A stretch of DNA of 49,507 nucleotides, from contig JALSHM010000397.1 of NCBI GenBank assembly GCA_026982235.1, positions 1 to 49,507 on the forward strand. The letters run 5' to 3'. Position 1 is the stretch's first letter; every line of letters starts with the position of its first letter. Below the pieces are notes generated by a model that saw nothing but the letters and a program-made list of their open reading frames with translations, did not search any database and had not been told where the DNA came from. Shown here one piece after another: positions 11,260-49,507 of this stretch. A program made the position numbers and the translations under genes. Source of the stretch: Robiginitomaculum sp. GTDB taxonomy: Bacteria > Pseudomonadota > Alphaproteobacteria > Caulobacterales > Maricaulaceae.

Positions 11260-11260
11260 T

Positions 11261-18622: not shown

Positions 18623-18623
18623 A

Positions 18624-23345: not shown

Positions 23346-24957
23346 CTTGAAACTCCAGTGCTAATTTGGCTTCCAATTCAGGGTATGCGTCTTTGTAGAC
23401 GTCTGTCGGACACCCCCATTGAGGTTCCCCAATTGACAACTCTCCAGAGACTTTGTCCTTATAACTCCTATCTTTCAGGAAAACCCTTCGATAGAGCCGC
23501 GGTGCGACACCCACAAACGGGCGAAACATTACATGCGTACTACCTTTTGAGGGCGGCTCCCAGTCGCTCGACTCAGTTGTAATGGAGTCCGCATGCAGAT
23601 CGGTTGCTTTGCTCTTTGGATATGGTTCGATGAACTGCACCTCGTCAATTCCCGACGCGACGATGTGGCGAGCGCAATAATGGCACGGATAGGTTGTGAC
23701 GAACATTCGACATGCGCGTGGGGACGTTCCTGATATTGCTGCAGATAGAATTGCGTCCATTTCAGCATGAACCGCCCGACTAAATTCAATTAGCCCCCCA
23801 ATTCGGGTGCTGCGAATCTTTTTTATTAATTCTGCTCTGTCCTTATCCGTGGTCAGATCGGGAAATTCGTCTATCAACTCTTCAATGATGTTGTTTTGCT
23901 CTCGATTGCTGCTGCAGAAAACAGTTTCGCGAAATGCGCACCGTTCATCCCCCTCAATATCAATGGAAAAACTTTCCCCGTACAATCCCCCACCTGCTCG
24001 GGGAACATCATTAGCTCCAGTTGCAATGATATTTCCTCTTGCATCCACCAACGCGGCGCCAACCTGGCGTGAAAGGCAAGCGCTTCTCATTTGTGCGGAA
24101 CGTGCTTGATGCATCCCTGTTTCCGCAATAGTCGGGCGGATTATCTTGGATTGAGTGATTAGGTTCACAAAGCGGCGGAGGTGATCGTTCATCCCCGTTA
24201 TAGCAAGATCTTCTCCCGCGTCCTGAGAGTTATCAACAAAAAAATCTGCCTCATGAAAGGTGTCAGAAACATGTTGGCCGTGCTTTTCCGGCGCATCCTC
24301 ATCGCGAGTAAGAAAATTTTTGACCTGCTGTTTTACCGATTTGTCACTCCATTTCGCTCTATCAAATAAGTTTTCGCGAATACGGCGCTCGCGTTCGACC
24401 GGGTCGCAAACAATCCCAAGAAGTGAAAATGCGTCTTGGTAGACCTCTCGAAGCAATGCAACTTCGGCCGGATGGCGAAGAGAGTCCATGATATAAGCTC
24501 GGTGTTTTCCGTCCGGTTCAACGGGCTCGCCAGAAAACGACTTATCTTGAAGCATTGCACGTCGTTCAGCAATCTCCCTTAGAATGAGTCGGGCAACAGC
24601 GGAATGGTCCTCGGGCAAGCTATACAGCTCCCCTTTCCGCAATTCATCGCCGCGGTCTTGCATTTTTTGGATATTTTCGAGCGATTTCCGTGCGTCCACA
24701 GCTGGAACCATTTGGTCGATATTTTCAGCAGCACGTCGAATAAGACCACTCGCTTTAATGATTTCAACTTCGAAATCACTTTCTTCGAGAAAATTTTTCA
24801 ATATCTTAGCTGCGGTTCCAGAACCTGCTCCAGCGGGCCCGACAATTGCAACGAAGACTTCGTTTGTACGAAGATCTCGCAGAACGTCTTGGCCCGCTTG
24901 GGCACTGGATGATCGTTTTGCGTGCTTCTTCGGAATTTTGATTGGATCGGAGGTCAT
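23338..24957 (-). CDS. P-loop NTPase + cytidine/dCMP deaminase fusion (anti-phage dCTP deaminase / AvcD-like)
   Basis: 539 aa with an N-terminal Walker A (VGPAGAGSGT) and C-terminal zinc-deaminase motifs (VHAEMDA and PCHYCA). Confidence 0.85.
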   Translation of the reverse strand: MTSDPIKIPKKHAKRSSSAQAGQDVLRDLRTNEVFVAIVGPAGAGSGTAAKILKNFLEESDFEVEIIKASGLIRRAAENIDQMVPAVDARKSLENIQKMQDRGDELRKGELYSLPEDHSAVARLILREIAERRAMLQDKSFSGEPVEPDGKHRAYIMDSLRHPAEVALLREVYQDAFSLLGIVCDPVERERRIRENLFDRAKWSDKSVKQQVKNFLTRDEDAPEKHGQHVSDTFHEADFFVDNSQDAGEDLAITGMNDHLRRFVNLITQSKIIRPTIAETGMHQARSAQMRSACLSRQVGAALVDARGNIIATGANDVPRAGGGLYGESFSIDIEGDERCAFRETVFCSSNREQNNIIEELIDEFPDLTTDKDRAELIKKIRSTRIGGLIEFSRAVHAEMDAILSAAISGTSPRACRMFVTTYPCHYCARHIVASGIDEVQFIEPYPKSKATDLHADSITTESSDWEPPSKGSTHVMFRPFVGVAPRLYRRVFLKDRSYKDKVSGELSIGEPQWGCPTDVYKDAYPELEAKLALEFQDG

Positions 24958-34817: not shown

Positions 34818-35417
34818 TTAGCTATTCCAGAAAACGTGAATTTCTTTATAGCCTGTCTCTATAGAGAATATGTCGCCGCTTAATTCCATGTCACGCGCCA
34901 TAGATTTATAGTCGATATAGTATTTTAGGGTTTTGGGAATCTCGGTGGTGGACTCGGTGAGTTCCTCGGCAAAGTCTGCTAAGCTTTCATACTCGCCGTT
35001 ATAGCGCTCAAGGGCGGATTCTGCGTCCTTGACATGCCCTTTGGGTGCAATATCGCCGCCATAGTTTTCCAGTAACTTGCCGCCAAAGCCTGAACAGTTT
35101 TCCAAAAACTCGGCAATCTCAACCACACGGGCAAAGCTGTCATATTCGTTTATGGTTACACCATCGAAATTCTCGTAATCGTGAATTGCCCATTCCTCGG
35201 CATCGGGGATGGGGGATGATTTAAGGATGGCGCGAACTGCGTCCTGAATACTGTCCTCGTCCTCAACGTCTATCCAAGAGCCGTGCAAGTGGCCGTTATT
35301 GTAGGCGGCAAGGCAAGCCACATAGATTCTAGGGGTGTCGGGGTCTAGCACGAAAGGTGCGGTTAAATTCCCTGTAGGTTGGGCTTGGCTCGGTGTTGCG
35401 GTTCTAGGTTCGGTCAT
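34818..35417 (-). CDS. ardA: ArdA antirestriction protein
   Basis: I place the start at the ATG at 35417 (MTEPRTA...). It has the signature IYVACLAAYNNGHLHGSWIDV and a very acidic C-terminal half. The track's N-terminal extension to 35657 runs through the hairpin. Confidence 0.85.
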   Translation of the reverse strand: MTEPRTATPSQAQPTGNLTAPFVLDPDTPRIYVACLAAYNNGHLHGSWIDVEDEDSIQDAVRAILKSSPIPDAEEWAIHDYENFDGVTINEYDSFARVVEIAEFLENCSGFGGKLLENYGGDIAPKGHVKDAESALERYNGEYESLADFAEELTESTTEIPKTLKYYIDYKSMARDMELSGDIFSIETGYKEIHVFWNS

Positions 35418-35448
35418 GGGGCAGTCTCCTCTTTTTTCTCCGCACCAG

Positions 35449-35631
35449 CCTCCGCCGGAAGGGCGGGGATGGGCGGCTAAGAGGCCCGCCAGCAGGGCGC
35501 ACAAGGGTGCGGGGCAAGGGTTTTGGTAGGCAGACCAAGACAAATTATATGCATATAAAGCCAAAGCCCTTGCGCCGTGACCGCGCCCTGCTATCAGGGC
35601 CGCCCGCCCATCCCCGCACTTTCGAAGGAGG
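35449..35631. repeat. ~183-bp GC-rich imperfect inverted repeat (bulged hairpin) upstream of ardA
   Basis: Three arm pairs match: 35449-35476 with 35604-35631, 35491-35500 with 35583-35592, and 35514-35526 with 35561-35573. The apex is the perfect palindrome TTATATGCATATAA (35545-35558). Confidence 0.85.
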
Positions 35632-35705
35632 CGTTCATGATGTGGGGATTTAAACAAAGAAAGAATTCAATCGCCAAAATACATGGATGTGCTATAACGT
35701 GAATC

Positions 35706-37265
35706 ATGTCCGATGAAATTAAAAAATTTGAACAATTTTGGGATGTTTTATCCCGGGCTGGTATTGATGAGCGGGCGCGGGTGCGGGCGGAGCGGTTGGT
35801 TGCCAAGACCGGGGAGGCAATTCCTGTTGTTATCGCTGAATTGGGGTTAGCGTCTGATGCGGTTGTTGTTGATGCGTTTTGCGAAGTTACAGGTTTACTA
35901 AAAACGGATGTTACGCAAATCTCTGATAACTCTATTTTGGAGGACACTATCAGCACAGAGTATTTGCGTTCTCACAGAGTTTTACCTTTGTCGCAGAATG
36001 AGAGTGTGCTTGATGTCGCGATAATTGATCCATTTGATCTGGATGCCATCACGGCTTTGGAGTTTGCTTGTAAGGTTAAAGTATCACCGTCAATCATGAC
36101 GCTCACGGATTGGCGGGCGGCCTTTGACCAGTTGTATGGACGACAGGATGATATCGATGAAACCGAAGCAGCGTTGACGGGAGCGGGTTGGGCCGATGAT
36201 ACGCAGCGATTGAAGGATTTATCCAATGAAGCACCTATTGTGCGTATGGTTGATCGGTTGTTGACGGATGCTGTGGATAAGGGAGCTACTGATATACATG
36301 TGGAGCCTGCTCCAAACATTACCCGCATCCGTGTTCGCATAGACGGGGCATTGCAAGCTTTGCCAGACGAAGCACCTGAACTTGCCGCGTTGTTGGTCTC
36401 GCGGGTTAAGGTGCTCTGCGATATGGATGTGGCTGATAGGCGCCGCCCGCAAGATGGCCGGACATCTGTTGCCGTGCGTGGTCGTCCAATCGACCTACGG
36501 GTCTCTACAGTGCCAACGGCTTACGGAGAGAGTATGGCTATACGGATATTGGACCGCGCTGCCTCTATGCTGTATTTAAGCAAACTCGGATTTTCTGATT
36601 ATGACCGGGAATTGATAGAGACCGTATTAATAACTCCCAAGGGCATTTTTCTGGTCACCGGGCCGACGGGTTCTGGTAAGACAACTACGCTCTATGCAGC
36701 ACTGAATAAACTACGGCAGACCCAACGCAAGATACTAACGGTGGAAGACCCGATCGAGTATTTCTTTGAAGATGTAAATCAGGTGCAGGTCAACGAAGCG
36801 GCGGGTGTTACCTTTGCCACGACTTTACGCTCATTCCTACGTCAAGACCCGGATATACTAATGGTCGGCGAAATACGCGACGGAGAAACTGCGCGTATCG
36901 CTGTGCAGGCGGCGCTAACCGGGCATTTGGTATTATCCACTCTGCATACCAATGATGCCGTCTCGTCCATTGCACGGCTCAAGGACATGGGGGTTGAAGA
37001 CTACCTCATCGCGGCAACACTAAGCGGTGTCACGGCACAAAGACTTGTGCGCAAGAAAAGCGGAACAGGCCGCACTGTTATTGCTGAAAGTTTTCTCTGT
37101 ACACCAGAGATAACCAAAGCCATCAGATCAGGTGCTCCCGAAGATGAAATTGTCAAACTCGCGAGCAAACAAGGCATGGTATCTCTACGGCAAGACGGAG
37201 AAGCCAAAGCAAAAGCCGGACTGGTCAATCTTGATGATGTTTATATTGCTACAGGGCAGAACTAA
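35706..37265 (+). CDS. gspE: GspE/PilB-family secretion ATPase
   Basis: 519 aa with a T2SSE_N/MshE-like N-domain, Walker A GPTGSGKTT, Asp box, Walker B ILMVGEIRD and His box STLHTND. It lacks the tetracysteine segment. Confidence 0.9.
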   Translation: MSDEIKKFEQFWDVLSRAGIDERARVRAERLVAKTGEAIPVVIAELGLASDAVVVDAFCEVTGLLKTDVTQISDNSILEDTISTEYLRSHRVLPLSQNESVLDVAIIDPFDLDAITALEFACKVKVSPSIMTLTDWRAAFDQLYGRQDDIDETEAALTGAGWADDTQRLKDLSNEAPIVRMVDRLLTDAVDKGATDIHVEPAPNITRIRVRIDGALQALPDEAPELAALLVSRVKVLCDMDVADRRRPQDGRTSVAVRGRPIDLRVSTVPTAYGESMAIRILDRAASMLYLSKLGFSDYDRELIETVLITPKGIFLVTGPTGSGKTTTLYAALNKLRQTQRKILTVEDPIEYFFEDVNQVQVNEAAGVTFATTLRSFLRQDPDILMVGEIRDGETARIAVQAALTGHLVLSTLHTNDAVSSIARLKDMGVEDYLIAATLSGVTAQRLVRKKSGTGRTVIAESFLCTPEITKAIRSGAPEDEIVKLASKQGMVSLRQDGEAKAKAGLVNLDDVYIATGQN

Positions 37266-38479
37266 TGACCAAGTTTAGCTACAAGGTACAGGGCGCGGAC
37301 GGGCGGGCACAATCCGGTATTGTTGAAGCTGCCAGCAAATCTGGGGCGCTGGAGGTTTTGCTTTCGCGGGGGCAGACGCCTTTGCGGTTACATGCGGTTG
37401 GAGATAAGTCTGAATTTCAAAACTGGTTTAAACCTGCACCCAAGGAGTTCAGCGTTAAGGATGCGGCGGAGTTTTCGGGGGATTTATCACGGTTGCTCAG
37501 TTCGGGGTTTTCTTTGCATCAGGCTTTGCAAATGACTGCGGTTTCGGCGGGCTCCAAACCTGCTCGCGCTTTGGCAGAAAAGTGCGCAGAGCAAGTGCAA
37601 AAAGGCGGCAGTTTACACAGTGTATTAGTCAAAGAAACTTCCGGTCCGGCATTGGCATTGGCTGGGCTGGTACAGGCTGGAGAAACCACCGGGCATTTGG
37701 AAAAAGTGCTGCAGGATGCGTCGGGCAGTTTTGGTGCCAGTGCCGAGTTTAAAGAAAAACTGGGTTCGGCTTTGATCTATCCGGCAATTATTATGTTTAT
37801 GATTTCGCTGACTTTGCTCATATTTTTTACGATGGTGTTGCCGCGTCTCCGGCCATTATTTGAGGATGTAGGTGATAGGCTACCGGCTATGACCAAAGTC
37901 TTACTAGGCTTTGGTGATTTTTGCGAAAATTGGGGGCCGTGGCTGGCTTTGGGCTTGGTTATGTTGCTGATTGGTATGCGTGTGCGGCCAGGGCTGAGAC
38001 AGAAAATAAAACATTTTTTTGACAGTATCTTGTTAGGTCGGCTTGGTATGGGTGCCCCTAAATTGGCTGGGTTTGCCGCCTATGCCCGCACGCTAGGCCT
38101 GTTGGTCAATTCGGGTGTGCCGTTACCCGCCGCTAATTCTGTTGCCGCCGGGGCTGTGGCTAATCTGGTGTTAAGTGAGAAATTTGAAAGTCTGACATCT
38201 CCACTTCGCGGCGGTGAAAATCTATCAAAATTATTGGGAAAACTTTCAGAAGCCCCGGAGCTGTTGGTACGAATGGCGGTGATTGGTGAACGCTCAGGTA
38301 AGCTAGGTCCGGCGCTGACCGACGCAGCAGGCATTTTGGAACGCTCTGCCCGTACTCGTATGGAGCGGTTGATGGCCGCGCTTACACCAGCAATTACAAT
38401 AATATTGGGTATTATTGTTGCGCTGGTTGTCGGGGCGTTATTCTTGGGCTTGGCGAGTTTAACCGAGATTGATGTATGA
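37265..38479 (+). CDS. gspF: GspF/PilC-family inner-membrane platform protein
   Basis: 404 aa with two T2SSF-like repeats and three TM segments. Its start overlaps the gspE stop. Confidence 0.88.
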   Translation: MTKFSYKVQGADGRAQSGIVEAASKSGALEVLLSRGQTPLRLHAVGDKSEFQNWFKPAPKEFSVKDAAEFSGDLSRLLSSGFSLHQALQMTAVSAGSKPARALAEKCAEQVQKGGSLHSVLVKETSGPALALAGLVQAGETTGHLEKVLQDASGSFGASAEFKEKLGSALIYPAIIMFMISLTLLIFFTMVLPRLRPLFEDVGDRLPAMTKVLLGFGDFCENWGPWLALGLVMLLIGMRVRPGLRQKIKHFFDSILLGRLGMGAPKLAGFAAYARTLGLLVNSGVPLPAANSVAAGAVANLVLSEKFESLTSPLRGGENLSKLLGKLSEAPELLVRMAVIGERSGKLGPALTDAAGILERSARTRMERLMAALTPAITIILGIIVALVVGALFLGLASLTEIDV

Positions 38480-38940
38480 TGCTAAGCAAACAGGCTGGAT
38501 ATACTTTGACCGAATTACTTGTGGTTCTTATGTTGTTAACCTTGATGACCGCTATCGGGCCGGTGGCTCTACAAAAGTTATTACCCGGCATGGCGGTAAA
38601 TAGTGCGGCCCAAACACTACAAGCAGATTTGCAAACCCTACGCGTCCGTAGCTTGACTTCGGGGAGTATGGGCGAATTACGCATTGAGAAAAATGGGCGA
38701 GGCTATATACTGCTGGTTGCAGAGCAAATAATACGGCGTCGCAGCTTGGGGAATGCAGTTCGTATTCGCAGTGTGGATGGTGAAGAATATGGCAACGAGG
38801 ACAGCATTATTACGGCAGATGCAAGTGGGAGGTTATCCGGCTTGTCATTACGCGTTGAGCGCGGTAAACGTGTCAAATCTATTCAGATTAACCCTGTATT
38901 CGGGACGGCAGAAATTGTAAGTGCTTATGTGGAGCAATAA
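38476..38940 (+). CDS. gspH: Minor pseudopilin, GspH-like
   Basis: Prepilin leader KQAG/YTLTELLVVLMLL with Glu at +5. Size (154 aa) and pattern are GspH/FimT-like. Confidence 0.65.
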   Translation: MMLSKQAGYTLTELLVVLMLLTLMTAIGPVALQKLLPGMAVNSAAQTLQADLQTLRVRSLTSGSMGELRIEKNGRGYILLVAEQIIRRRSLGNAVRIRSVDGEEYGNEDSIITADASGRLSGLSLRVERGKRVKSIQINPVFGTAEIVSAYVEQ

Positions 38941-39337
38941 ACCAGATTATTATAAAAAAGCCGGGAATCAGGAAAATGGCTTTATTCTCAGCGAAATTCT
39001 TGTGGCCATGGTAGTATTGGCGATTGCGGCTATCGGCTTTTTACAAACCATACAATTTGCAGCAAGCAGAATGCATAATTCAAAGGTAAGTCATACGCAA
39101 ACGGTCTTTGCACTCTCACTTATGGAAGATGCAATTGAACGGGATTTGTATGATAAAGAAGGTGGGGAGGGCGTTGACAAAAAAACCAAGCTCAATTGGC
39201 GTGTTGTCGTTGTTCCGGATAAAAACCGTCAATCACAAAGCTCGGAACAACCAAGCCTAAAAACAGTCAGTGTCGAAGTGTGGAAAACGGAAACTCGTAA
39301 GTTAAAACTCACCAGTATGAAATGGTCGGGGCGTTAG
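38921..39337 (+). CDS. gspI: Minor pseudopilin, GspI-like
   Basis: Leader ...NQENG/FILSEILVAMVVLAIA. About 136-138 aa. The start is either GTG 38921 or ATG 38927. Confidence 0.6.
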   Translation: MLMWSNKPDYYKKAGNQENGFILSEILVAMVVLAIAAIGFLQTIQFAASRMHNSKVSHTQTVFALSLMEDAIERDLYDKEGGEGVDKKTKLNWRVVVVPDKNRQSQSSEQPSLKTVSVEVWKTETRKLKLTSMKWSGR

Positions 39338-39338
39338 T

Positions 39339-39884
39339 ATGAGCGCCGGGTTTACATTAACAGAGGTGCTTGTGGCGCTCATGATCTTGGGGGCAACGGC
39401 AGGAACAATGAGTACGACTATGGGGACGGCGTTTAAATCTTACGAGCGACTTGATAGCAGTTCATCTGATTTACGCAAACAATCCAAGCTCAAACAAGTT
39501 ATGGCAGAAGTGTCAGGCCGGTATTGGCTCGCGGACGGTAAAGTCAAAGAAAAGAAACTAACCGAAATTCCTGTGAACGGGCCGTATTTTTGCAAGTTAG
39601 CCATTGAAGAAAAGCAAGCTGATATTTGGGGTCTTTATGCCATAAGTGAAAGCGGTGAGAAAACGCAAATAATAGCGTCTAAAACAGAATTGCGCTTTAG
39701 AGCGATTGGTCAGCGCAGAAAATTGGGTGTGACCCGGAACACCCCTTATGATTATCACACCTTGATATTGGAGCAATTAGAAGATAGCTTGGTCAGTGAG
39801 TGGAACCCCATCATATCTGTAGCGTTAAAGGTAGATGCCGACCCCGCCTGCCGATTTGATATTGTGGGGCTTCAATGTCGATAA
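39339..39884 (+). CDS. gspJ: Minor pseudopilin, GspJ-like
   Basis: Leader MSAG/FTLTEVLVALMILG. 181 aa. Confidence 0.6.
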   Translation: MSAGFTLTEVLVALMILGATAGTMSTTMGTAFKSYERLDSSSSDLRKQSKLKQVMAEVSGRYWLADGKVKEKKLTEIPVNGPYFCKLAIEEKQADIWGLYAISESGEKTQIIASKTELRFRAIGQRRKLGVTRNTPYDYHTLILEQLEDSLVSEWNPIISVALKVDADPACRFDIVGLQCR

Positions 39885-40861
39885 CTAATGAGTTGGTAGA
39901 AAAAAACTTGGAACGATATATAAGTAATGGAACATTACTTGGTGACGGCTTAGATATTGTTGCTAGGTTTGGGAAATCTCTTTCGAAGGCATTCGGATGG
40001 AACAGCGCCAATGCTATAGGCATAATTTATGCTGAGCCGCCAATCGATTTGCTTGAACAGAAATTGACTTTGAATGTAACAACCCGTGCAAGTGCAAAGC
40101 GCGCCGCAAATTTAATGATAACAAGGCTGTCGCCGCTCCATGAAGATCAAATTGAATGGGATATTGTTGGTCCCCATACTTCGCTAGATAACGGCGTTGA
40201 TAACACCGAAAATGTTGGTGCCCAAATAGTGAATACGAAGAAACAATATACGCTCGGGATTGTCCGCAAAACAGATTTGGAAAATTGGGATAGATTACAA
40301 ACACAGCACAGTTCGTTAAAAACCATCGGGCGTAGCGGCGATGTATACCAGTTTATCAGTACCCTTAGTCGTCAAACCAAACGTAAGCAAACTCTGTTAG
40401 GTATATTGGCATTTATGGCCTGCTATATTGGTTTGTTGTGGGGTATGGCGCAGTGGGCCAGCCGACCTGTAAGAATTGCGAACCATTGGCAAGAACAAAC
40501 TCGCACTATCCGATTAGACATCCAGAATATGCGTATAGAATTGAAGAAAAATAAAGCCCGCTCAATATTGATGGAAAGTTATCAATCAAGTTCGCACCGA
40601 GTAAATTTGTTAGATATCCTTGCCATCACGGCACAAACCATGCCGGACGGCGGTTGGATACGTGAAATAAACTTATCTGCAAACCAAATAAAGATAAGCG
40701 GGACGTCTGATAATCCGTCCAAGCTTGCTGTGCAAATGGAAGCCAAGCCATTTATTGGACAAGTGCAATTGGGTGCAGTATCCGCAGATCGTTCCAGTGG
40801 ATTGCAGAGGTTTACCCTGACGATTATCCTCGCTGACAATTTGGCGAGGGAAAAACCATGA
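39875..40861 (+). CDS. gspL: GspL-like (PilM/PilN-type fusion) assembly protein
   Basis: 328 aa with a cytoplasmic N-domain, a single TM (LLGILAFMACYIGLLWGMAQW) and a PilN-like periplasmic C-domain. Assignment also rests on its position before a GspM-like gene. Confidence 0.55.
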   Translation: MSITNELVEKNLERYISNGTLLGDGLDIVARFGKSLSKAFGWNSANAIGIIYAEPPIDLLEQKLTLNVTTRASAKRAANLMITRLSPLHEDQIEWDIVGPHTSLDNGVDNTENVGAQIVNTKKQYTLGIVRKTDLENWDRLQTQHSSLKTIGRSGDVYQFISTLSRQTKRKQTLLGILAFMACYIGLLWGMAQWASRPVRIANHWQEQTRTIRLDIQNMRIELKKNKARSILMESYQSSSHRVNLLDILAITAQTMPDGGWIREINLSANQIKISGTSDNPSKLAVQMEAKPFIGQVQLGAVSADRSSGLQRFTLTIILADNLAREKP

Positions 40862-41439
40862 GCAAAACCAGCCAAAACACTAACCGACTTGTTCAAGGAG
40901 TAGGCCTCGTCTTAGCGCTCCTATTGTTACTCCCATTTATTTTAATGGGCGGAAAAATGTTGAATGCATATACCGACCTGAAGGATGTTCGGTTTCAATC
41001 AGAAAAACTATTGCGACAACAACAAACCTTAAGACAAGACTTGCAAATTAGCCAAGAAAACCTTTCTGCATTACAACGGGACTTTAAACCTTTAGACGGG
41101 AGTATAGCCAAAGCCAATGCTATACTTCAAACCCGATTGCGTAAGTTGATTACGGTGGTTGGCGGTACTGTAGAAACCAGCTCTCAAGTCAAAATAAGGA
41201 ATGATATTAGGGCGGATGCGTCACTATCCCTTAGCCCGGTTTCAGTTAATGTTCGTTGGAGTGTGAGTGAAGTGGGCTTGGGCGAATTCTTGGCGAATAG
41301 TGCTGCGCCCAAACAAAACCTAAAAATAGACAGTCTTCTCATTCGGCGTAGACAGGGCACAGCCAGCCTACTTGATATTCGCATGCAATGTTCCGCACTC
41401 TGGCAAGACCCGTCTTTGGACAGTAAGGGGAGACGGTAA
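40858..41439 (+). CDS. gspM: GspM/PilO-like assembly protein
   Basis: 193 aa with an N-terminal TM, a coiled coil and a ferredoxin-like C-terminal pattern. It has 4-nt overlaps with its neighbours. Confidence 0.5.
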   Translation: MSKTSQNTNRLVQGVGLVLALLLLLPFILMGGKMLNAYTDLKDVRFQSEKLLRQQQTLRQDLQISQENLSALQRDFKPLDGSIAKANAILQTRLRKLITVVGGTVETSSQVKIRNDIRADASLSLSPVSVNVRWSVSEVGLGEFLANSAAPKQNLKIDSLLIRRRQGTASLLDIRMQCSALWQDPSLDSKGRR

Positions 41440-41912
41440 TGAAAATAACGACAAAAATATTTGGCTTTATTGTTGTGAGTTTACTGCTCGGTTTAGCGGC
41501 TAAAACACTTCCCCATAAACAAGTAATCGTTACCCCGTTGAATGTAGAGATAAGTCCTCAAACTGTTACCTCTATACCTGCCATTGATGCATCGCTCTTG
41601 TTGCAGCGTTATCAATCGCGTCCTTTATTTGTCTCAAAAATTGCACATGATGTCGGGGCTGGGAACGAAACAGACATAGTAATTGTCAAAGAATGGTCAC
41701 CATTTGATTATCAACTTATCGGGATTAGTCGTGTTAGCAGCAAGACAACGGGTTGGTTTAAAAATATTGATACAGGCGATCTTGTTTCTGGGCGCCAAGG
41801 TATGCAATTGGGAAATTGGACACTGGATGCTATGTCTGGTACTGAGGCGAAATTGTCTTCGGAAGGTAAAACTGAAAGTTTAAAGTTGTTTCAAGGGGGA
41901 GAAGCGCGTTAA
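41439..41912 (+). CDS. GspC/PilP-like small bitopic protein (HR-domain candidate)
   Basis: 157 aa with an N-terminal TM. It lies immediately upstream of the secretin gene. There is no PDZ or coiled-coil extension. Confidence 0.4.
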   Translation: MKITTKIFGFIVVSLLLGLAAKTLPHKQVIVTPLNVEISPQTVTSIPAIDASLLLQRYQSRPLFVSKIAHDVGAGNETDIVIVKEWSPFDYQLIGISRVSSKTTGWFKNIDTGDLVSGRQGMQLGNWTLDAMSGTEAKLSSEGKTESLKLFQGGEAR

Positions 41913-41927
41913 GGTGCGGTTTTGTAG

Positions 41928-44039
41928 ATGTATATGGGATTAGGTTTGAAAAGTTCGCAAAATAACACACGTATATTGAACACATTGCTGTGCGGTATAG
42001 CCGTCTTTGCGGTGACGGCTTGTCAGACAATGGATGGTCAGACTTTGCCCAAACGTACAATCGGTGATAATGTGCTTGACGGTGTATTGCATCCAGACAC
42101 GGAAATTGATACAGAAGCGACGAAAAGAACACTAACCCAGAAAACCACTAGAAAAACTGTCCCATCAGTTATGCAGGATGTTCAGTTGGGCGCTGGCCAA
42201 TATGTGAAAGCCGGAACGGCGCAAACGGACTTTGTGACCCAAAGGTCGGGGCGTGTTGAACTCGCCTTTGATAAGGCTCCTGTGGAGCAAATCATCAATG
42301 CGGTTCTTGGTAATATACTGGGAGCTGATTTCATTATTGACCCTGCCGTTAAAGGTGAAGTGACTTTGCGTACAGCTAAATCCGTGAAGAAATCCGATAT
42401 TCCTGCGCTTTTAGAACAAGCCTTACGTCTGGTTAATGTCTCACTTATTGAAACTGCGCCCAATACATTCACTGTCATCCCATCATCACAAGCAAAACGG
42501 TTTGCCCGGGCTCCGGGTTTGGTCGGTAATGGCGTAAGAGGGGGCATGGTGATTGCGCCTTTGGAATATATATCGGCGTCAGAAATGGCGCGCGTATTGC
42601 AACCATTCACCCCACAGGGCAGCAGCATAAAAGCAGATAGCAAACGAGAAGTTCTTATCCTGTCCGGTGAACCTGCTCAAATCAATGTACTCTTGGATAC
42701 AATGGAAATGTTTGATGTGGATTGGTTGGCGCAAATGTCGTTTGGGGTGTTTGAAACACGTTATGCGCCACCGGAAACGCTGATTGAAGAACTTGATAAA
42801 ATATTTGGCGGTGCAAATGGCCCTATAGGTTCTCAAGTGGAATTTATCCCAATGCCTCGGCTTGGATCCGTTTTGGTAATTGCCAAGCGGGCTCACAGAA
42901 TTGCTCAAGCCGAAAAGTGGATACGTAAACTTGACCGTAATGTAGGCGGGGAAGGCCGCAGGTTTCAATTTTTGTCAATTATTAACGCAGATGCGGAGGA
43001 GTTGGCTGACACAATTACTGATTTGGTTGGTGACGAAAGTAGCGGTGGTAATCAATATGATAGCGCTCGATCTGAATCCGATACGCAAAACCAAATTCAG
43101 GCGCAAAGACCGGCGCAAACAAATGGAGGCTCTAGGCAGAAATTGCGCATACGCGCTGATTTAGCAACAAACTCTCTTATAATTTTTGGTACAGACGAAG
43201 AATATCGCCAGATAGCTGACCTCGTGCAAAAACTGGATGTATTACCAGATCAGGTTTTAATCGAAGCCGTAATTGCCGAAGTTACCTTGAACGATGAATT
43301 GCGTTATGGTGTGCAGTGGTTTTTTGACAGTCGTACGGGGGGGACAGCGACTTTTTCTGACGCGGGTACTGGCGCGGTGTCTTCGCGCTTCCCCGGCTTT
43401 GCCTATGCATTCTCGGGCAATTATGTCAAAGTCGCTATGAACGCATTGGCTGCGGTTACCGATATAGAAATTGTGGCTTCCCCGCAAATTATCACGCTAG
43501 ATAACCACACCGCAACCTTACAGGTAGGTGATCAAGTCCCCATCGTTACCCAGTCAGCTGTTAGTGTCGATAACCCCAATGCCCCAATTGTTAATTCCGT
43601 ACAATTTAGGGACACAGGCATTTTGTTGACGGTCACGCCACGGGTCAATGACGGTAATATGGTGTTCTTAGAGGTGGCACAAGAAGTCAGCAATGCTGTG
43701 CCAACCCTGACATCTGGAATTGATGCGCCAACTATTCAGCAAAGACGTTTTGATACGGTGGTAACGATTGCCGATGGTGACACATTGGCTCTGGGGGGGT
43801 TAATCCGCACCAGCCGCACCGTCGGTGATACAGGCATCCCGATACTGAAGGATATTCCGCTCCTCGGCAATGCCTTTAGCGGTAAATCTGACAGTCGTGG
43901 TCGGACGGAATTGGTGATTTTTATGACGCCCCATATCATCCGTTCGCGCGAAGATGCCAGACGCGCCAATGAGCATATCAAGAGCCGTTTGCAACGCTTA
44001 AAACTTACAAATTTTAGTGATGAACAAACGCAGCCTTAA
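41928..44039 (+). CDS. gspD: GspD-family secretin with a lipoprotein-type signal
   Basis: 703 aa. The C-terminal secretin domain includes VIAEVTLND...YGVQW, ...ASPQIITLDNHTATLQVG..., ...IPILKDIPLLGNAF. The N-terminus has N0/N1-like repeats. A lipobox VTAC has its Cys at residue 32. Confidence 0.9.
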   Translation: MYMGLGLKSSQNNTRILNTLLCGIAVFAVTACQTMDGQTLPKRTIGDNVLDGVLHPDTEIDTEATKRTLTQKTTRKTVPSVMQDVQLGAGQYVKAGTAQTDFVTQRSGRVELAFDKAPVEQIINAVLGNILGADFIIDPAVKGEVTLRTAKSVKKSDIPALLEQALRLVNVSLIETAPNTFTVIPSSQAKRFARAPGLVGNGVRGGMVIAPLEYISASEMARVLQPFTPQGSSIKADSKREVLILSGEPAQINVLLDTMEMFDVDWLAQMSFGVFETRYAPPETLIEELDKIFGGANGPIGSQVEFIPMPRLGSVLVIAKRAHRIAQAEKWIRKLDRNVGGEGRRFQFLSIINADAEELADTITDLVGDESSGGNQYDSARSESDTQNQIQAQRPAQTNGGSRQKLRIRADLATNSLIIFGTDEEYRQIADLVQKLDVLPDQVLIEAVIAEVTLNDELRYGVQWFFDSRTGGTATFSDAGTGAVSSRFPGFAYAFSGNYVKVAMNALAAVTDIEIVASPQIITLDNHTATLQVGDQVPIVTQSAVSVDNPNAPIVNSVQFRDTGILLTVTPRVNDGNMVFLEVAQEVSNAVPTLTSGIDAPTIQQRRFDTVVTIADGDTLALGGLIRTSRTVGDTGIPILKDIPLLGNAFSGKSDSRGRTELVIFMTPHIIRSREDARRANEHIKSRLQRLKLTNFSDEQTQP

Positions 44040-44934
44040 ATCCATTCTTGTTCTAGGATCTAATGAGGGTACGGCCTTGGTTGCAGCTTTGTGGCTCTCT
44101 CTCATACTGGCACTGTTGGGGATTGCTGCAATCTCATTGGTAAAATCAAATGTCCTAGAAACCAAAGTCCAAACCCGTCTTGACAAGGCGTGGGTAGTCG
44201 CAGAAGGCGGGGTGGCTATTGCAACTTATCATATAGCCGATTCCCGCAATCCATGGCGTCCACGTACAGAGAACTACACGGCAAAAATTGGTGATGATGA
44301 GCTAACAATTTATGTCAATAGCCCACAAGCGAAAATTGATCTTAACGGGGCTGTTCCCGTATTGTTGGCAAGTCTATTCAGCGAACTGGGGTATGAACAA
44401 GACCTGGCTAATCAGCTCGGTGATAGGATAGCCGACTGGCGCGACGGCGATGATTTTATTCATCTAAACGGTGCGGAAGCCCGCGCTTATTTGCAAGCAG
44501 GGTTGGATTACAAGCCAAGCAATGCGCCTTTTAAAAATGTATCAGAACTTGGTCGTGTATTAGGAGTAGACGCTAACATAATGGCGTGTGCCGCGCCGTT
44601 CCTAACCATTTATGCACCAAGTGGACGGGTTGACCCGTATCTTTCCCGTAGCGTTGTGCGACGTGCTGCTGGGCTACGGGACACGCCACCACCAACAATC
44701 CCCGGTGTGCGCCGTACAAGTTTGGCTGGGCAAGTGTTTGAAGTGCAAGCTCTTACGCCGATTAGCAAACATTCCGCAGCCCGTATAACAGCTGTCATTC
44801 GCTTTACGGGCGACCCGTCCGATCCAGTTTGGCGCCACCGCATTACACGCGATGTAGTTCTGTTAAAACAGGCCACATCCGAAGAACAACTACCGATTAC
44901 ATGCCCGGCACTAGCACAAGGAACCGCTCAATAA
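44017..44934 (+). CDS. gspK: GspK-like minor pseudopilin
   Basis: 305 aa. The hydrophobic N-terminus has no Glu5. The T2SSK pattern is KIDLNGA...IADWRDGDD...NGAEARAY...KPSNAPFKNVSELGRVLGV. Confidence 0.8.
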   Translation: MMNKRSLKSILVLGSNEGTALVAALWLSLILALLGIAAISLVKSNVLETKVQTRLDKAWVVAEGGVAIATYHIADSRNPWRPRTENYTAKIGDDELTIYVNSPQAKIDLNGAVPVLLASLFSELGYEQDLANQLGDRIADWRDGDDFIHLNGAEARAYLQAGLDYKPSNAPFKNVSELGRVLGVDANIMACAAPFLTIYAPSGRVDPYLSRSVVRRAAGLRDTPPPTIPGVRRTSLAGQVFEVQALTPISKHSAARITAVIRFTGDPSDPVWRHRITRDVVLLKQATSEEQLPITCPALAQGTAQ

Positions 44935-44984
44935 AGCTCTGTTTTGTATTGCGCTTAGACACATTTATCAGTTAAGGTAAATTT

Positions 44985-45434
44985 ATGGAACAGACGAAAT
45001 ACGCAAATTTAAAACATCAACACGGATATACGTTGACCGAGCTACTCGTCGTTTTGGTCATCATCTCCTTGCTCACAGCCATCATAGCGCCGCGCCTAAT
45101 AGGTCGTATCGGTAAAGCCAAATCAACAACCGCCCGCACCCAAATAGAAAATCTAATCAGTGCGCTTGATATATACCAACTGGATATGGGAGAGTATCCA
45201 AGCACAGAACAAGGCTTAGCCGCACTCATAATCAAGCCGGAACTCGGTGAAGAACAATCAAATCTATGGTCCGGCCCATATATGCGCAGAGGCAAAGTCC
45301 CAAAAGACCCCTGGAAAAACCCGTTCATCTATACAAGGTCAGTTGACGGCGAAACAATCCTAGTAAAATCTTTAGGTAAAGATGGCCAAATAGGCGGTGA
45401 AGGCGAAAACCGTGACATTACGAGTGATGATTGA
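44985..45434 (+). CDS. gspG: GspG major pseudopilin
   Basis: Leader ...QHG/YTLTELLVVLVIISLL, followed by the canonical GspG core (AKSTTARTQIENLISALDIYQLDMGEYPSTEQGLAAL...DPWKNPFIY...SLGKDGQIGGEGENRDI). Confidence 0.92.
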   Translation: MEQTKYANLKHQHGYTLTELLVVLVIISLLTAIIAPRLIGRIGKAKSTTARTQIENLISALDIYQLDMGEYPSTEQGLAALIIKPELGEEQSNLWSGPYMRRGKVPKDPWKNPFIYTRSVDGETILVKSLGKDGQIGGEGENRDITSDD

Positions 45435-46290: not shown

Positions 46291-46833
46291 ATGAGCGACC
46301 AAGCTTGGAAAGTGCTGGCTGGTGCCGTTATTGTTGCTCTGGCAATATTTGCTGTGCTGCAATTTGGGCATATGGGGCGTAAGAAAGCGTTTAGGCAAGA
46401 CAGTGGTGACGCTACAGTGACAGAGACACAGCAAAGTACAAATAGCCCTAGCAAGCCCATGTCCATGCAAAGGGCAGAGCAGCAAATTGATATTGTACAG
46501 GCTGAACAAGTCGCGGAATCAGATATTGAGGCCATGGCCACCGAACAAGAAGGTTTGGCACCGCTTGAACAAGATGCCCGCCTTTATGCCAAAGCAACAG
46601 CCAATATGGGCATTACCCAGATCCGCGCCCTCCAACAAAGTAGGCAGGGGGTAATTGTGCGCGATATAAATGGACACCTTATCCCTCCATACGCAGAGCG
46701 TGAACTATGTAATGCTAACAAGAAATGTAAAACAATCATAACCAACACAAAAACAGGCGTAACTGTCTGGGATGGCAGTTGGAAAGGTGGGATACACCCA
46801 ACAGGAATTGGTAAGGAAGTGGTAAAAAAATGA
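46291..46833 (+). CDS. Membrane-anchored hypothetical protein
   Basis: I place the start at the ATG at 46291 after GGCGGAG. It has one N-terminal TM (WKVLAGAVIVALAIFAVLQ). Its stop overlaps the start of the next large ORF. Confidence 0.5.
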   Translation: MSDQAWKVLAGAVIVALAIFAVLQFGHMGRKKAFRQDSGDATVTETQQSTNSPSKPMSMQRAEQQIDIVQAEQVAESDIEAMATEQEGLAPLEQDARLYAKATANMGITQIRALQQSRQGVIVRDINGHLIPPYAERELCNANKKCKTIITNTKTGVTVWDGSWKGGIHPTGIGKEVVKK

Positions 46834-49507
46834 TGATGAGAAATTTAATGAGAGTTTTGATTGTTGGCAAAAACATATCGGCATTAATAGTTTTGATGGT
46901 TTTGTGCTCATTCAATTCACTTGCAGGTGTACCACATGCTGCTTTTGACGCCGGTCGGTCCGTAAATCTCGCGGAAGCCCAACAGTATTTTACCACAGAT
47001 GAAACGAACAAACCCAGTACAAGTGTTAGAACTGCACACATAACAAATAGTGACTTAGATAATTTGTTGGCTCTAACTGCTAAAGGTTTAAATTATGATC
47101 CTGAAAGAATTTACGAGTTTGTCAGGAATAACGTAAATTTACATCCTGTATTTGGTGAAAGTAAGGGCGCTTACGGTGCCCTCATCGATTTTGAAGGTAC
47201 AGCATTTGATCAGTCTAGATTAGCTATGTTACTTTTACATGAAAGTGATGGAAAGCATAATCAAAGTATCTCTGCAAAAATCCATATAGGTAAAGTAACG
47301 CTAACGCCCTCGCAATTATCTAGTTGGTTGGGTGTTTATGATAAAAAAATGGCATGTAGATATTTTGCTAATGGTGGAATACCTTCTTCTTTAGCTAATT
47401 GTGGAGTATTATCAGGTAATGTAACATCGAATGTTGATATTGCTCATGCCTGGATTGATGTCACTATTAATGGTCAAGTAGAACGGTGGGACTTAGCCTT
47501 CAAAGAAATGGATTATTTGCCCAAACTAGGAAATTTAAGAAGTACCGCTAGAAATAATAGTGAGGTTCCTGCACAAAAATTGCTTATTGGAGCAGAAAAA
47601 AACTTTGACGGTTTAGTCCCATATATTAGGGGAATAAACAAAAATGGCTTGATGAACGATTTAACGGATGCGTCGATAGGTTTGGATGCTTTTCTTAAGT
47701 CAAATGACAATTATTCTAGGCAATTGGATGATGTTGTTGGTGGCCACAAGATCGTCAGGTATAAAAATGGAATGAGCAAAGCGCCATTAAGCAATTACAC
47801 AACTTGGTCGGCAGGGGGGTATCAAGATATTCCAGATATATACAGGATAATATTGGATTTGGATGTATGGTCAGTCGGCTATCCCGCTAATCCTGACTAT
47901 TCTGGGCATACAGCAGAGAATCTAATTAGCTCTATATTGTCAGCAGATGAAGTATATGGTCGTCTGTTTCGGATTAAGGCCCGGACTAATTGTAATGATG
48001 GTATGTCAGGCGATGATATTCATATAACAGGCTCATATTGTCTCATGTTAAGTGTTGGTGATACCAATGTTGTCGAAGTTATGCGCGACACGATGTTCAT
48101 GATTCCGTCTGCTTTTGGCAAAGAGGTACCTAGTTTAAAGAAAAATATTGATATCACTATAGCCTACAATCATCCCTATGCTAACAGCTATAGTAGTTCT
48201 CAAACAAATGCTGGAGATTTTCAAGATGGGCACATTATAAAAAGGGCTTCGGTTCTGTCGGATACAATAATAGTTAATGGCTGGGGAGCGACTTCAGCCG
48301 ATCTTATAGCTATGTGGAATAAACGTTTGGGGCGAGATGGAAAACCGCCTAGTTTTGGACATCCCTGCGGAATTTCAGACCCGGAAGTTACGAGAGATTA
48401 TAGCTGTTTAAAGCCAAGACGTGCATCGAATATAGTAAGACATAAGCTAGCAGCGTCCTATTTATCACAAAGTAGTTTGTTTTATGACATGTTAGCATCA
48501 TTAAGTACTACGAATATTATCCATCATAGAACAATTGGATTTGTTTATGGAACTCATGTTGTGAAAGATATGAACCAAGCTCAACCTACAGGAGGTGTAG
48601 GTACACCCGTTGCAGCCACAAATGCACCATACTTCACTTCTGCTGACGACAGTATATATTTTGATATCCGCCCCTCTTGGAATGTTATTTCTGACACCAA
48701 CAATTCGAATATTGAGACTAGTGTGAAAAGAAGTTTGGCGGTCATATCATCTGCGCTTGAAGGGTTAGTGTTCAAACACGTACTTGGTTCCTATGATGTG
48801 GTTACCACCGGAAGCAAATTTGCTTGGGCAAGTTCAGGGCCACCAAGAGATACGGATGGGCCGGCTAGAAAGCTCTTTAATGGCGACTTTGTTGATGATT
48901 CTGATGCACCATTTCCCTATACTATTCCCAAGTTTTATCTTTTTAATCCCAGCAATTATTCTATTGAGGTAGCAGGGAATTTACTAACAGAAGAAAACTA
49001 TTTACGACTACCCGGGGGAGTTTTTCTGGGCCTGCCCCACCCAAAACTTTTATCAATTTTTCAATTAGATAAGTATATAGCGAGTGGTTATTCCGTCGTG
49101 ATGCCGTCAGAAACTTTTTTGGGCCCCGGGCCTGTCAAAGGAACTACGCTGGGTATTTATACAAGAGTGAGTTGCTTGAATTATGGGGCTGTTGGTGGTG
49201 GCGGATGCGCAACAACGAGGACGCAAGTGCATAACCCTCATCCGAGCCGTGGCAGTGCGATGGTGGCTTGGAATTCGGACACTAGCAAAATCGGGCACGC
49301 TATCGTTAGACGTTTTGGGGTTGTTAAGGGAGGGGGTGCGTCTTTTGCTCCAGGTGAAATAGCACAACCTAAACCACCAAAGGCTGATACATTCATTGAC
49401 CCATCTGATAAATTAAAGCTTGCCTATGGAGTTGACACAAAGAGTGGTTCTTTCTCATACAGCACTCCAGAAATGGTTGTTGGTGAAGGCACCGGCCGAA
49501 ATAGCTT
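46830..49507 (+). CDS. Large secreted protein (at least 892 aa, 3' end outside the window) with a transglutaminase-like core and an Rhs-type motif at the window edge
   Basis: Frame 3 is open from ATG 46830 to the window end, checked codon by codon. The ORF is absent from the track because it has no stop. The N-terminus is signal-like (MMMRNLMRVLIVGKNISALIVLMVLCSFNSLAG). See the corresponding finding for the TGase-like block. The last residues, GVDTKSGSFSYSTPEMVVGEG, resemble the start of Rhs cores. Confidence 0.8.
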   Translation, partial: MMMRNLMRVLIVGKNISALIVLMVLCSFNSLAGVPHAAFDAGRSVNLAEAQQYFTTDETNKPSTSVRTAHITNSDLDNLLALTAKGLNYDPERIYEFVRNNVNLHPVFGESKGAYGALIDFEGTAFDQSRLAMLLLHESDGKHNQSISAKIHIGKVTLTPSQLSSWLGVYDKKMACRYFANGGIPSSLANCGVLSGNVTSNVDIAHAWIDVTINGQVERWDLAFKEMDYLPKLGNLRSTARNNSEVPAQKLLIGAEKNFDGLVPYIRGINKNGLMNDLTDASIGLDAFLKSNDNYSRQLDDVVGGHKIVRYKNGMSKAPLSNYTTWSAGGYQDIPDIYRIILDLDVWSVGYPANPDYSGHTAENLISSILSADEVYGRLFRIKARTNCNDGMSGDDIHITGSYCLMLSVGDTNVVEVMRDTMFMIPSAFGKEVPSLKKNIDITIAYNHPYANSYSSSQTNAGDFQDGHIIKRASVLSDTIIVNGWGATSADLIAMWNKRLGRDGKPPSFGHPCGISDPEVTRDYSCLKPRRASNIVRHKLAASYLSQSSLFYDMLASLSTTNIIHHRTIGFVYGTHVVKDMNQAQPTGGVGTPVAATNAPYFTSADDSIYFDIRPSWNVISDTNNSNIETSVKRSLAVISSALEGLVFKHVLGSYDVVTTGSKFAWASSGPPRDTDGPARKLFNGDFVDDSDAPFPYTIPKFYLFNPSNYSIEVAGNLLTEENYLRLPGGVFLGLPHPKLLSIFQLDKYIASGYSVVMPSETFLGPGPVKGTTLGIYTRVSCLNYGAVGGGGCATTRTQVHNPHPSRGSAMVAWNSDTSKIGHAIVRRFGVVKGGGASFAPGEIAQPKPPKADTFIDPSDKLKLAYGVDTKSGSFSYSTPEMVVGEGTGRNS

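Follow-up and report, generated by a model that had tools for sequence, protein, structure and literature searches.

The stretch of Robiginitomaculum sp. DNA analysed here, called the window (49,507 nt, contig JALSHM010000397.1), holds at 35706-45434 on the + strand eleven co-oriented genes of a predicted type II secretion system (T2SS), arranged GspE-F-H-I-J-L-M-C-D-K-G. The cluster begins 288 bp from ardA, a backbone gene of an integrative and conjugative element (ICE), and is followed by genes for proteins of the Rhs/YD-repeat type that carry Sec signal peptides. We consider it probable (roughly 0.6) that this T2SS set, borne on the ICE, exports the neighbouring Rhs/YD proteins.

The open reading frame (ORF) listing of the window confirms all eleven genes, which an earlier note on this DNA had named E, F, H, I, J, L, M, a C/PilP-like protein, D, K and G, and profile and fold searches agree with these names, though weakly for H, I, J and M (Table 1). 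Neighbouring genes overlap by 1-23 nt, with the exception of gaps of 1 nt between gspI and gspJ, 15 nt between the gene of the 157-residue C-like protein and gspD, and 50 nt between gspK and gspG. The ORFs equal in length their orthologues in nine other loci (related loci are given L numbers below), as expected of intact genes. The stretch from ardA through the T2SS to the Rhs genes is not an assembly artefact at the ardA/gspE junction, because it recurs at 100% identity in two further public assemblies, L001 and L002. An assembly chimera at this junction was considered and is ruled out by L001, which crosses it, is 100% identical to the window wherever the two overlap (14.5 kb) and extends for another 3.3 kb. 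Apart from the prepilin peptidase, the eleven genes make up, as assigned here, a complete, intact Gsp-type T2SS.

The assignment to T2SS is made because GspD and GspG pass the equivalog cutoffs of their T2SS models, GspK passes its Pfam cutoff and GspF scores best as GspF, and because the cluster further encodes a GspC homology region (HR) fold in the 157-residue protein, a GspL-type periplasmic fold and five prepilin leaders. GspD comprises an N0 domain (PF21305), three Secretin_N domains (PF03958) and the Secretin domain (PF00263), and aligns near full length to the XcpQ and PulD chains of the PDB, scoring 150-170 bits against PDB secretins. Its lipobox, AVTAC↓Q, is kept in all family members, and the lack of a pilotin gene is explained by the secretin being a predicted lipoprotein, and hence "self-piloting". 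GspF scores 230 bits with TIGR02120 (equivalog cutoff 424) versus 148 bits for PilC models, while GspE scores 484 bits with the TIGR02533 GspE model versus 462 bits for PilB, both under the model cutoffs, and in a PDB sequence search PilB and GspE/EpsE chains score about equally. Leaders of the form G↓(F/Y)xLxE are present in all five pseudopilins, with the exception of GspK, whose leader NEG↓TALVA lacks Glu5, as is usual for this protein. The T2SSM_b family found in GspM also appears in the precomputed annotation of this protein in some relatives, mostly flagged as weak.

For the secretin and the major pilin, the PilQ, MshL, HofQ and ComGC models score three to four times lower, and none of the cluster's proteins scores higher in the profile scans as a PilT-type retraction ATPase, as PilO or as PilP than with a T2SS model. 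The sole further ATPase of the T2SSE fold in the window is TrbB of the ICE. From its gene content and profile scores we therefore class the cluster as a T2SS-type set, in line with the earlier note, and reject an identity as a type IVa pilus (T4aP), mannose-sensitive haemagglutinin (MSH) pilus or Com pilus.

Two components depart from familiar forms and were placed by their modelled folds. The 157-residue protein matches no Pfam or NCBIfam family. In its AlphaFold2 (AF2) model, residues 91-150 have a predicted local distance difference test score (pLDDT) of 85-89, and the best PDB match of the C-terminal beta domain is the GspC HR of 3oss_C, from a GspC-GspD complex (TM-score 0.86, root-mean-square deviation 1.9 A), followed by PilP, LspC and PulC-HR (6hcg_e). 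On this predicted fold the protein is a minimal GspC, which bears out the earlier guess of a C/PilP-like protein; the choice between C and P is made from the transmembrane (TM) anchor and the gene context, since PilP shares the fold. The GspL-like protein is composed of a short cytoplasmic domain, one TM helix and a periplasmic domain of the PilN/GspL type. In its AF2 model (mean pLDDT 64) only the periplasmic domain was matched, best by PulL (5hl8) and EpsL (2w7v, TM-score 0.65), with PilN and PilO ranking after them. A profile of this protein had no match in a PDB sequence search, and for the short cytoplasmic domain neither the PDB profile search nor the AF2 model gave a confident match to the actin-like domain of GspL.

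Downstream of gspG, the window continues on the same strand with a small YD-repeat protein, a 180-residue anchored protein and a giant Rhs-family protein that is cut by the window end. The two YD repeats of the first (CYTYDDLGRL...YNLDKHGNR) directly follow the cleavage site, and its signal peptide and YD hairpin are kept in eight further loci, including Methylomonas and Burkholderia plasmids. The 180-residue protein matches no Pfam or NCBIfam family, and homologues occupy the same position in L003, L007, L010 and L019. In L001, whose additional 3.3 kb consist entirely of Rhs genes, the giant protein is seen to have 1299 residues, and the next gene encodes a further YD-repeat protein, of at least 692 residues, with its own Sec signal peptide; the sequence of both window and L001 stops short of the C-terminus of this second protein. 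Both giant proteins match PF05593 and PDB Rhs structures. The first ~1000-1200 residues of the Rhs protein match no Pfam or NCBIfam family, and this region is homologous to the Rhs proteins of L007, L010, L019, Methylomonas pUP202 and Burkholderia plasmids. Since the two giants are fused as a single protein of >2000 residues in L007 and L010, they may be two parts of one YD shell, split as in TcB-TcC. The candidate cargo proteins have Sec signal peptides, recognised by inspection, and no PAAR/VgrG or type VI secretion system (T6SS) genes lie nearby.

The association of this T2SS with Rhs genes is conserved. Rhs/YD-shell genes lie within ~5 kb of the T2SS in all nine family loci with flanks (GspF identity 51-100%), and the loci named for this linkage are the window/L001, L003, L006, L007, L010, L017, L018 and L019. 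Their placement varies, being downstream on the same strand, divergent upstream of gspE, or convergent, and in most of the family loci the small 2xYD protein, the 180-residue protein and the Rhs N-terminal region are homologous across loci. The L006 Rhs protein has the RHS core motif (PF03527) at residues 1401-1425, followed by a tail of ~230 residues and a 70-residue ORF, an arrangement that, judged from the sequence, has the pattern of a polymorphic toxin and its putative immunity protein. Among more distant plasmid T2SSs, Rhs genes flank three of six, those of Rhizobium, Neorhizobium and Methylomonas (GspD 36-38% identical), and on Methylomonas pUP202 both the small 2xYD protein and the N-terminal region of the Rhs protein fall into the families seen in the window. 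The downstream genes are thus credible as substrates, as the earlier note had supposed, in that all have Sec signal peptides and accompany this T2SS lineage in a conserved manner.

A further flank observation comes from L023 (Neorhizobium petrolearium OS53, NZ_CP123001.1, 331947-363818), where one side of the T2SS encodes a 1855-residue "TcdB middle/N-terminal domain" protein and a transglutaminase family protein, and the other a 2093-residue Rhs protein. This locus suggests a link between the T2SS clade and Tc-toxin-like B/C components.

Table 1. Features of the window, with the T2SS cluster and its downstream neighbours first and the conjugative element after them
Feature	Position	Strand	Evidence
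GspE-type secretion ATPase, 519 aa, N-terminal MshEN/T2SSE_N domain	35706-37265	+	PF00437 4.7e-116, PF05157
GspF inner-membrane platform protein, 404 aa	37265-38479	+	PF00482 twice
GspH-like minor pseudopilin, 154 aa	38476-38940	+	N_methyl motif QAG↓YTLTE, weak TIGR01708
GspI-like minor pseudopilin, 136-138 aa	38921-39337	+	N_methyl motif ENG↓FILSE, weak XpsI/GspI
GspJ-like minor pseudopilin, 181 aa	39339-39884	+	N_methyl motif SAG↓FTLTE; J label by position only
GspL-like bitopic protein, 328 aa	39875-40861	+	PF05137 at residues 249-317
GspM, 193 aa	40858-41439	+	NF040576 GspM/XpsM 8e-08 (32 bits, below cutoff), PF10741 T2SSM_b 0.0016
Predicted minimal GspC, 157 aa, N-terminal TM helix and HR-type beta domain, without PDZ domain	41439-41912	+	AF2 fold match
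GspD secretin, 703 aa, lipoprotein signal peptide (liposecretin)	41928-44039	+	TIGR02517 438 bits (cutoff 351)
GspK minor pseudopilin, 304 aa	44017-44934	+	PF21687 T2SSK_1st 63.9 bits (cutoff 26), NF037980 3e-15
GspG major pseudopilin, 149 aa	44985-45434	+	TIGR01710 149.6 bits (cutoff 88.9), PF08334 9.7e-34, leader QHG↓YTLTE
Candidate cargo/accessory protein 1, 236 aa	45522-46232	+	Sec signal peptide, two YD repeats, Big_9/cadherin-like Ig domain PF17963 2.7e-11
Candidate accessory protein 2, 180 aa, N-terminal membrane anchor	46291-46833	+	TM anchor by inspection
Candidate cargo 3, giant Rhs-family protein	46848-49507, cut by window end	+	RHS_repeat matches
Long imperfect hairpin directly upstream of ardA	35448-35632 (185 nt)	.	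Inverted repeats, single-stranded DNA fold
Antirestriction gene ardA, 199 aa, the final backbone gene ahead of the cargo slot	34818-35417	-	PF07275 2.9e-43
ParB-like ICE backbone gene	32293-34071	-	PF02195, TIGR03734; 88% DNA identity to L028/L029
RlxS-type relaxase (MobA/VirD2 nuclease and DUF3363)	25128-27053	-	~41% identical to rlxS of Sphingomonas/Mesorhizobium replicons
MPF_T genes trbI, trbG (CagX), trbL, trbJ-like, trbE, trbB and coupling protein gene traG	8939-20672	-	Profile matches
AlpA/HTH_17-like putative excisionase, 71 aa	8005-8220	-	Resembles the HTH_17 gene between int and gspE in L019
Insertion sequence (IS) transposase (rve_3)	6762-7802	-	Repeat where other assemblies break
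P4-type tyrosine integrase	4821-6068	+	Arm-DNA-bind_3 and Phage_integrase; 74% identical to the integrase beside the L019 T2SS
Attachment (att) core, 45-nt 3' fragment of tRNA-Arg(CCG), anticodon loop to CCA	4587-4631	-	Single copy in window

The T2SS lineage to which the cluster belongs is rare and deep-branching. The GspL-like protein has only 12 homologues in 5.8 billion proteins, and an exhaustive HMMER search with the 157-residue protein returned seven representatives in 1.84 billion proteins and reached no named GspC or PilP family. GspF has 17 relatives, eight of them close (73-100% identity) and nine second-tier (51-58%), after which identity drops to ~30% and the matches outside the family are generically annotated T2SS F-family proteins. 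A scan for L-like peptide patterns found one carrier species, a Robiginitomaculum metagenome-assembled genome (MAG), among 185,579 species genomes, and four short loci in metagenomes; both counts are under-counts, the patterns being too specific for second-tier relatives.

All nine independent family loci, which besides the window are L003, L006, L007, L010, L011, L017, L018 and L019, share the order E-F-H-I-J-L-M-C-D-K-(O)-G. The nearest annotated relatives are plasmid T2SSs whose GspD is 35-39% identical, among them those of Acidisoma, ordered E-F-H-I-J-L-M-x-D-K, and Skermanella, ordered K-O-E-F-H-I-J-L-M-x-D, in which the order is mostly kept. The "re-ordered" layout that the earlier note had put forward as a novelty is therefore the normal layout of this clade, so that by the note's own standard the order is no novelty, and for annotation the unusual order, the minimal GspC and the PilN-like GspL are to be read as family traits, not as errors. 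In L003, a Robiginitomaculum MAG, the T2SS begins ~270 bp after a tRNA-Thr(GGT) gene (L003 5437-5511) and stands beside housekeeping genes (a PF00275 EPSP_synthase-family gene, maf and an RNase E/G-family gene), and its cargo is interrupted by an IS; this is a separate, non-ICE insertion of the T2SS module.

The backbone that precedes the cluster contains, in addition to the genes of Table 1, traF, and relaxase, coupling protein and mating-pair set are all present. Homologues of ArdA are 75-89% identical and occur mostly in Robiginitomaculum MAGs, and also in other MAGs. The hairpin upstream of ardA has a single-stranded DNA fold of -59.6 kcal/mol (z = -5.4) and may resemble the Frpo-type single-stranded DNA promoters of plasmid leading regions, which drive early anti-restriction expression. 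Two related ICEs, L028 (3.07 Mb contig) and L029 (2.43 Mb contig), are chromosomally integrated, and their stretch upstream of ardA aligns with the window and matches both hairpin arms. Over parB, ardA and the hairpin they share 87-89% DNA identity with the window, and this homology stops at 35652/35651, 54 bp before gspE. Beyond the junction, one relative carries restriction-modification and helicase genes and the other Dnd/GmrSD-type defence genes; the junction itself is devoid of tRNA genes, att-core copies and repeats in the window and in L028 and L029. Read from these sequences, the break at 35651/2 has the look of a cargo hotspot and not that of an element end. The identical 45-nt tRNA-Arg(CCG) core recurs in L019, where an integrase of 74% identity and an AlpA-like gene come next and a second-tier T2SS with the same cargo trio follows. 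The T2SS cluster is very probably ICE cargo, so that the earlier placement inside the element is upheld as probable. An att repeat or ICE end between ardA and gspE, which had been named as a possible objection, was looked for, and neither a tRNA nor an att-core copy is present there.

The ends of the element are only partly in view. The tRNA-Arg(CCG) fragment noted earlier is real, and a second copy of its 45-nt core, allowing up to three mismatches, is found neither in the window nor in the extra 3.3 kb of L001; scanning the window with ARAGORN and Rfam turned up neither a complete tRNA nor any other RNA gene. The right-hand att site lies outside the window. L030, which comes from the L001 sample and holds att and int, ends at window position 7446, and the backbone-T2SS contig of L001 starts at ~7606. 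The IS located here is probably multi-copy, and the arrangement of integrase and backbone in the window may be an IS-mediated inversion isomer or a mis-join. Either arrangement leaves the T2SS between int/att and ardA or beyond ardA, that is, inside the element.

Other genes of the conjugative region were noted in passing. The left ~4.5 kb of the window (1-4267), also contained in L030, are the Trb end of a second related ICE, with trbI, DUF2274, DUF736, an AbiEi/AbiEii toxin-antitoxin pair and a Y4jL-like gene. Its trb genes share 79-84% DNA identity with the main backbone and are inverted, head-to-head across the tRNA-Arg fragment and the integrase; such facing Trb ends are not predicted by simple tandem integration. 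Within the backbone stand a HipA kinase toxin gene (437 residues) with a small ORF before it and a gene for a 539-residue protein with cytidine/dCMP and MafB19-like deaminase domains (21114-22741, 23338-24957), the latter of which may have a toxin or anti-defence function. Between integrase and IS, at 6134-6753, a ParE-toxin-like ORF of 98 residues and its 105-residue partner are probably a toxin-antitoxin element with a stabilising role.

As the earlier note had also remarked, a prepilin peptidase is missing: the cluster contains no Peptidase_A24 (GspO/PilD) gene, and none of the other scanned ORFs of the window matches an A24 prepilin peptidase. The sister loci L003, L006, L007 and L010 carry a short A24 peptidase of 159-215 residues between gspK and gspG, where the window has its 50-bp gap, while L011 and the second-tier loci L017, L018 and L019 also lack the gene and keep their clusters intact. 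The sister peptidases have the length of Tad-type peptidases, which have no methyltransferase domain. Many T2SSs use an unlinked PilD, and the absence of gspO from a cluster does not exclude membership in the T2SS family. The window copy, having no peptidase of its own, must therefore, we infer, borrow PilD/GspO from the host.

On the reading that we favour, the Rhs/YD cargo would cross the inner membrane via Sec and fold in the periplasm, whereupon a GspE-driven pseudopilus of GspG, tipped by H-I-J-K, would push it through the liposecretin while the GspC-HR couples the inner-membrane platform to the N0 domain of the secretin. Exported cargo would reach the cell surface or the medium and act as a toxin or adhesin of the Rhs type, and the 180-residue anchored protein may be a private periplasmic helper, by analogy with lipase foldases. 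Since it occupies the variable cargo position beside ardA in an ICE of the Trb/RlxS type, the T2SS would move by conjugation.

Several readings compete with this one. A type IV pilus-like machine of the T4aP, MSH or Com kind, for adhesion or DNA uptake, could claim the near-equal scores of the ATPase with GspE and PilB models and the match of the L-like protein to the PilN Pfam model, but it is extremely improbable against a secretin and a major pilin above T2SS equivalog cutoffs, with the pilus models three to four times lower, proteins of the GspK, GspM and GspC-HR types, and a cluster that holds no PilT, PilM, PilO or PilP genes. The set might instead be a decaying or inert passenger in this host, assembling no pseudopilus for want of the peptidase that its four sister loci encode; this is very improbable, since all eleven ORFs are full length with intact prepilin leaders, the lack of the gene is a stable state shared with four other loci that keep their clusters, and reliance on an unlinked PilD is common among T2SSs. 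It is improbable, too, that the cluster lies outside the conjugative element, in the chromosome or a separate non-conjugative island, with the ICE ending after the ardA hairpin at ~35652. That view draws on the sharp stop of homology at 35651/2, the unseen right-hand att, the L003 T2SS, whose neighbours are housekeeping genes and a tRNA-Thr and around which no ICE is seen, and the L019 T2SS, which belongs to an int-xis island whose visible 20 kb contain no conjugation genes. Against it, the junction bears no tRNA, att-core copy or repeat in any of the three elements, the sequences of L028 and L029 past it are typical ICE cargo and not core genes, the att fragment and integrase lie on the far side of the backbone, so that an intact element must reach past ardA, and the same int/att family carries this T2SS in L019.

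The weightier question is whether the T2SS and the Rhs genes belong together. The T2SS could be a working accessory system with unlinked substrates, and the Rhs genes independent island cargo whose adjacency has no functional meaning. In keeping with this, Rhs genes and secretion clusters are both typical cargo of variable regions, several loci have IS elements at their flanks, Burkholderia plasmids that lack a T2SS carry the same Rhs family, and three outgroup T2SSs have no annotated Rhs neighbour. We nevertheless judge it unlikely, because the adjacency holds in 9/9 family loci with flanks, in unrelated genomic contexts and in differing arrangements, because the neighbours (2xYD protein, 180-residue protein, Rhs N-terminal region) are mutually homologous down to a T2SS of 37% GspD identity, and because all neighbours have the Sec signal peptides that T2SS substrates require. 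Several observations do weigh against export of Rhs proteins by an ICE-borne T2SS. Both gene classes are common on islands, and some of their co-occurrence could be hitch-hiking; three of the six outgroup plasmid T2SSs have no annotated Rhs neighbour; and homologous pairs of Rhs and small YD genes occur with no T2SS nearby on the conjugative plasmids of B. contaminans and B. gladioli (L026/L027; the small 2xYD protein is annotated in L026 and a weak match in L027). The Burkholderia proteins may use the housekeeping T2SS of their host, and since Rhs proteins with the same N-terminal region occur there without a T2SS, the cargo family is wider than the T2SS lineage. Export would also need the folded Rhs shell to fit the GspD channel. 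As for the machine, GspE, F, H, I, J and M all score under the curated equivalog cutoffs, the cytoplasmic part of the GspL-like protein is short and its AF2 confidence only moderate, and function hangs on a host peptidase gene outside the window. As for the element, the right-hand att end lies outside the window, and the conjugation backbone is oriented opposite to what int and att lead one to expect and is joined to them in this contig only, across a repeated IS.

Export of the Rhs/YD proteins by the ICE-borne T2SS remains the reading that we prefer. A broader proposal, which we advance tentatively and at somewhat less than even odds, is that the cluster represents an unrecognised mobile T2SS lineage specialised for the export of giant Sec-dependent Rhs/YD shells and moved together with its cargo by ICEs, integrase islands and plasmids among Alpha- and Gammaproteobacteria. 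Rhs/YD toxins are major weapons in bacterial competition, those of Gram-negative bacteria being familiar chiefly as T6SS effectors or Tc-toxin subunits. How Rhs proteins with signal peptides cross the outer membrane has been little studied, the sole case found being a Xanthomonas bacteriocin that depends on a housekeeping T2SS. If the proposal is true, Gram-negative Rhs toxins would have a dedicated outer-membrane route, distinct from T6SS delivery and from release of Tc toxins by lysis, and a T2SS lineage placed beside Rhs genes on conjugative elements would amount to a portable "toxin plus exporter" package. The matter also bears on the size limit of a folded substrate passing the GspD secretin, and export is open to experiment in cultured carriers of related plasmid clusters, namely Methylomonas sp. 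UP202, Rhizobium sp. TAL182 and Neorhizobium petrolearium OS53.

With the canonical Gsp systems (Pul, Eps, Xcp, Xps), the cluster shares the C-M component set as assigned above, the N0-N3 domains of GspD, the signature domains of GspG and GspK, and candidate substrates with Sec signals. It differs in its order, the canonical one being C-D-E-F-G-H-I-J-K-L-M, in its 157-residue GspC of TM helix and HR only, in an L protein with a short cytoplasmic and a PilN-like periplasmic domain, and in its lipoprotein secretin; GspN, S and O genes are lacking in the window, and sequence identity to the reference systems is low. The conjugative element resembles the Tn4371/ICEMlSymR7A-type ICEs in its RlxS with DUF3363, TraF, TraG, Trb MPF_T genes, ParB, ArdA, P4-type integrase and tRNA 3' att core, whereas in the window the relaxase is ~41% identical, the backbone is inverted relative to int and att, a second Trb end stands head-to-head with it and one att end is visible. 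With the Rhs/YD polymorphic toxins (T6SS Rhs effectors, TcB-TcC, Bacillus WapA) the cargo has in common the YD/RHS repeats and, in L006, the toxin-immunity pattern; in contrast to T6SS Rhs effectors, it has Sec signal peptides, no PAAR/VgrG or T6SS nearby and a long N-terminal region without a Pfam family.

Among specialised T2SSs, the Hxc system of P. aeruginosa has HxcQ, a liposecretin, and LapA, a dedicated substrate. By its description it is likened to the window cluster as a specialised second T2SS that has a private substrate linked to it and a secretin that is lipidated and self-piloted, and it differs in substrate class and gene order. HxcQ is given as a liposecretin by Viarre 2009, as cited in PMC3230066. 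The Txc T2SS on the genomic island RGP69 of P. paraeruginosa PA7 secretes the chitin-binding protein CbpE (PMC12369383); it is likewise island-borne, horizontally acquired and encoded beside its own specific substrate, but the island is non-conjugative and a two-component regulator is linked to it, of which no counterpart was seen in the window. On plasmid pO157 of E. coli O157:H7, the Etp T2SS is encoded together with the gene of its substrate StcE (bioRxiv 10.1101/2020.04.13.038984), with the differences of a canonical etpC to etpO order, a peptidase of its own, a plasmid instead of an ICE as carrier, and a metalloprotease as substrate. As many as 437 Escherichia plasmid records match the window GspD, and with the same query a near-full-length GspD-like gene was found on 474 PLSDB plasmids. 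Together with Etp/StcE and Txc/CbpE, these plasmids mean that a mobile T2SS packaged with its substrates, which the earlier note did not know to be described, is in principle not new.

Closest among the annotated relatives are the plasmid T2SSs of Rhizobium TAL182 (pRetTAL182b), Neorhizobium OS53 and Methylomonas UP202 (pUP202), in which GspD is 37-38%, GspE 38-39% and GspG 41-42% identical. All three have the PilN-domain L protein and Rhs flanks, and in Rhizobium and Neorhizobium liposecretin lipoboxes are seen and short A24 peptidases annotated. They are distinguished by two divergent operons or an E-F-G run, by plasmids typed as non-mobilizable and by a GspF that is only 26-27% identical. 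On the toxin side, the ~1400-residue Rhs-family bacteriocin Bcn-A of Xanthomonas perforans, encoded in a locus with accessory ORFs, loses its activity in an xpsD T2SS mutant (PMC7259588); likened by description, it differs in relying on the housekeeping Xps, with no dedicated T2SS linked. In the polymorphic-toxin survey of Zhang et al. 2012, "T2SS" denotes the signal-peptide route, and secretin, GspD and pseudopilin are not mentioned (PMC3482391). That survey and the Bcn-A study are the only relevant items found on T2SSs genetically linked to Rhs; the literature searched holds no T2SS lineage genetically coupled to Rhs/YD genes and none on an ICE, an absence that is weak evidence in itself. 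Mobile T2SSs with linked substrates are thus already known from Etp and Txc, and the machinery here is of an ordinary type; what stands out is the conserved pairing with Rhs genes and the carriage on a conjugative element.

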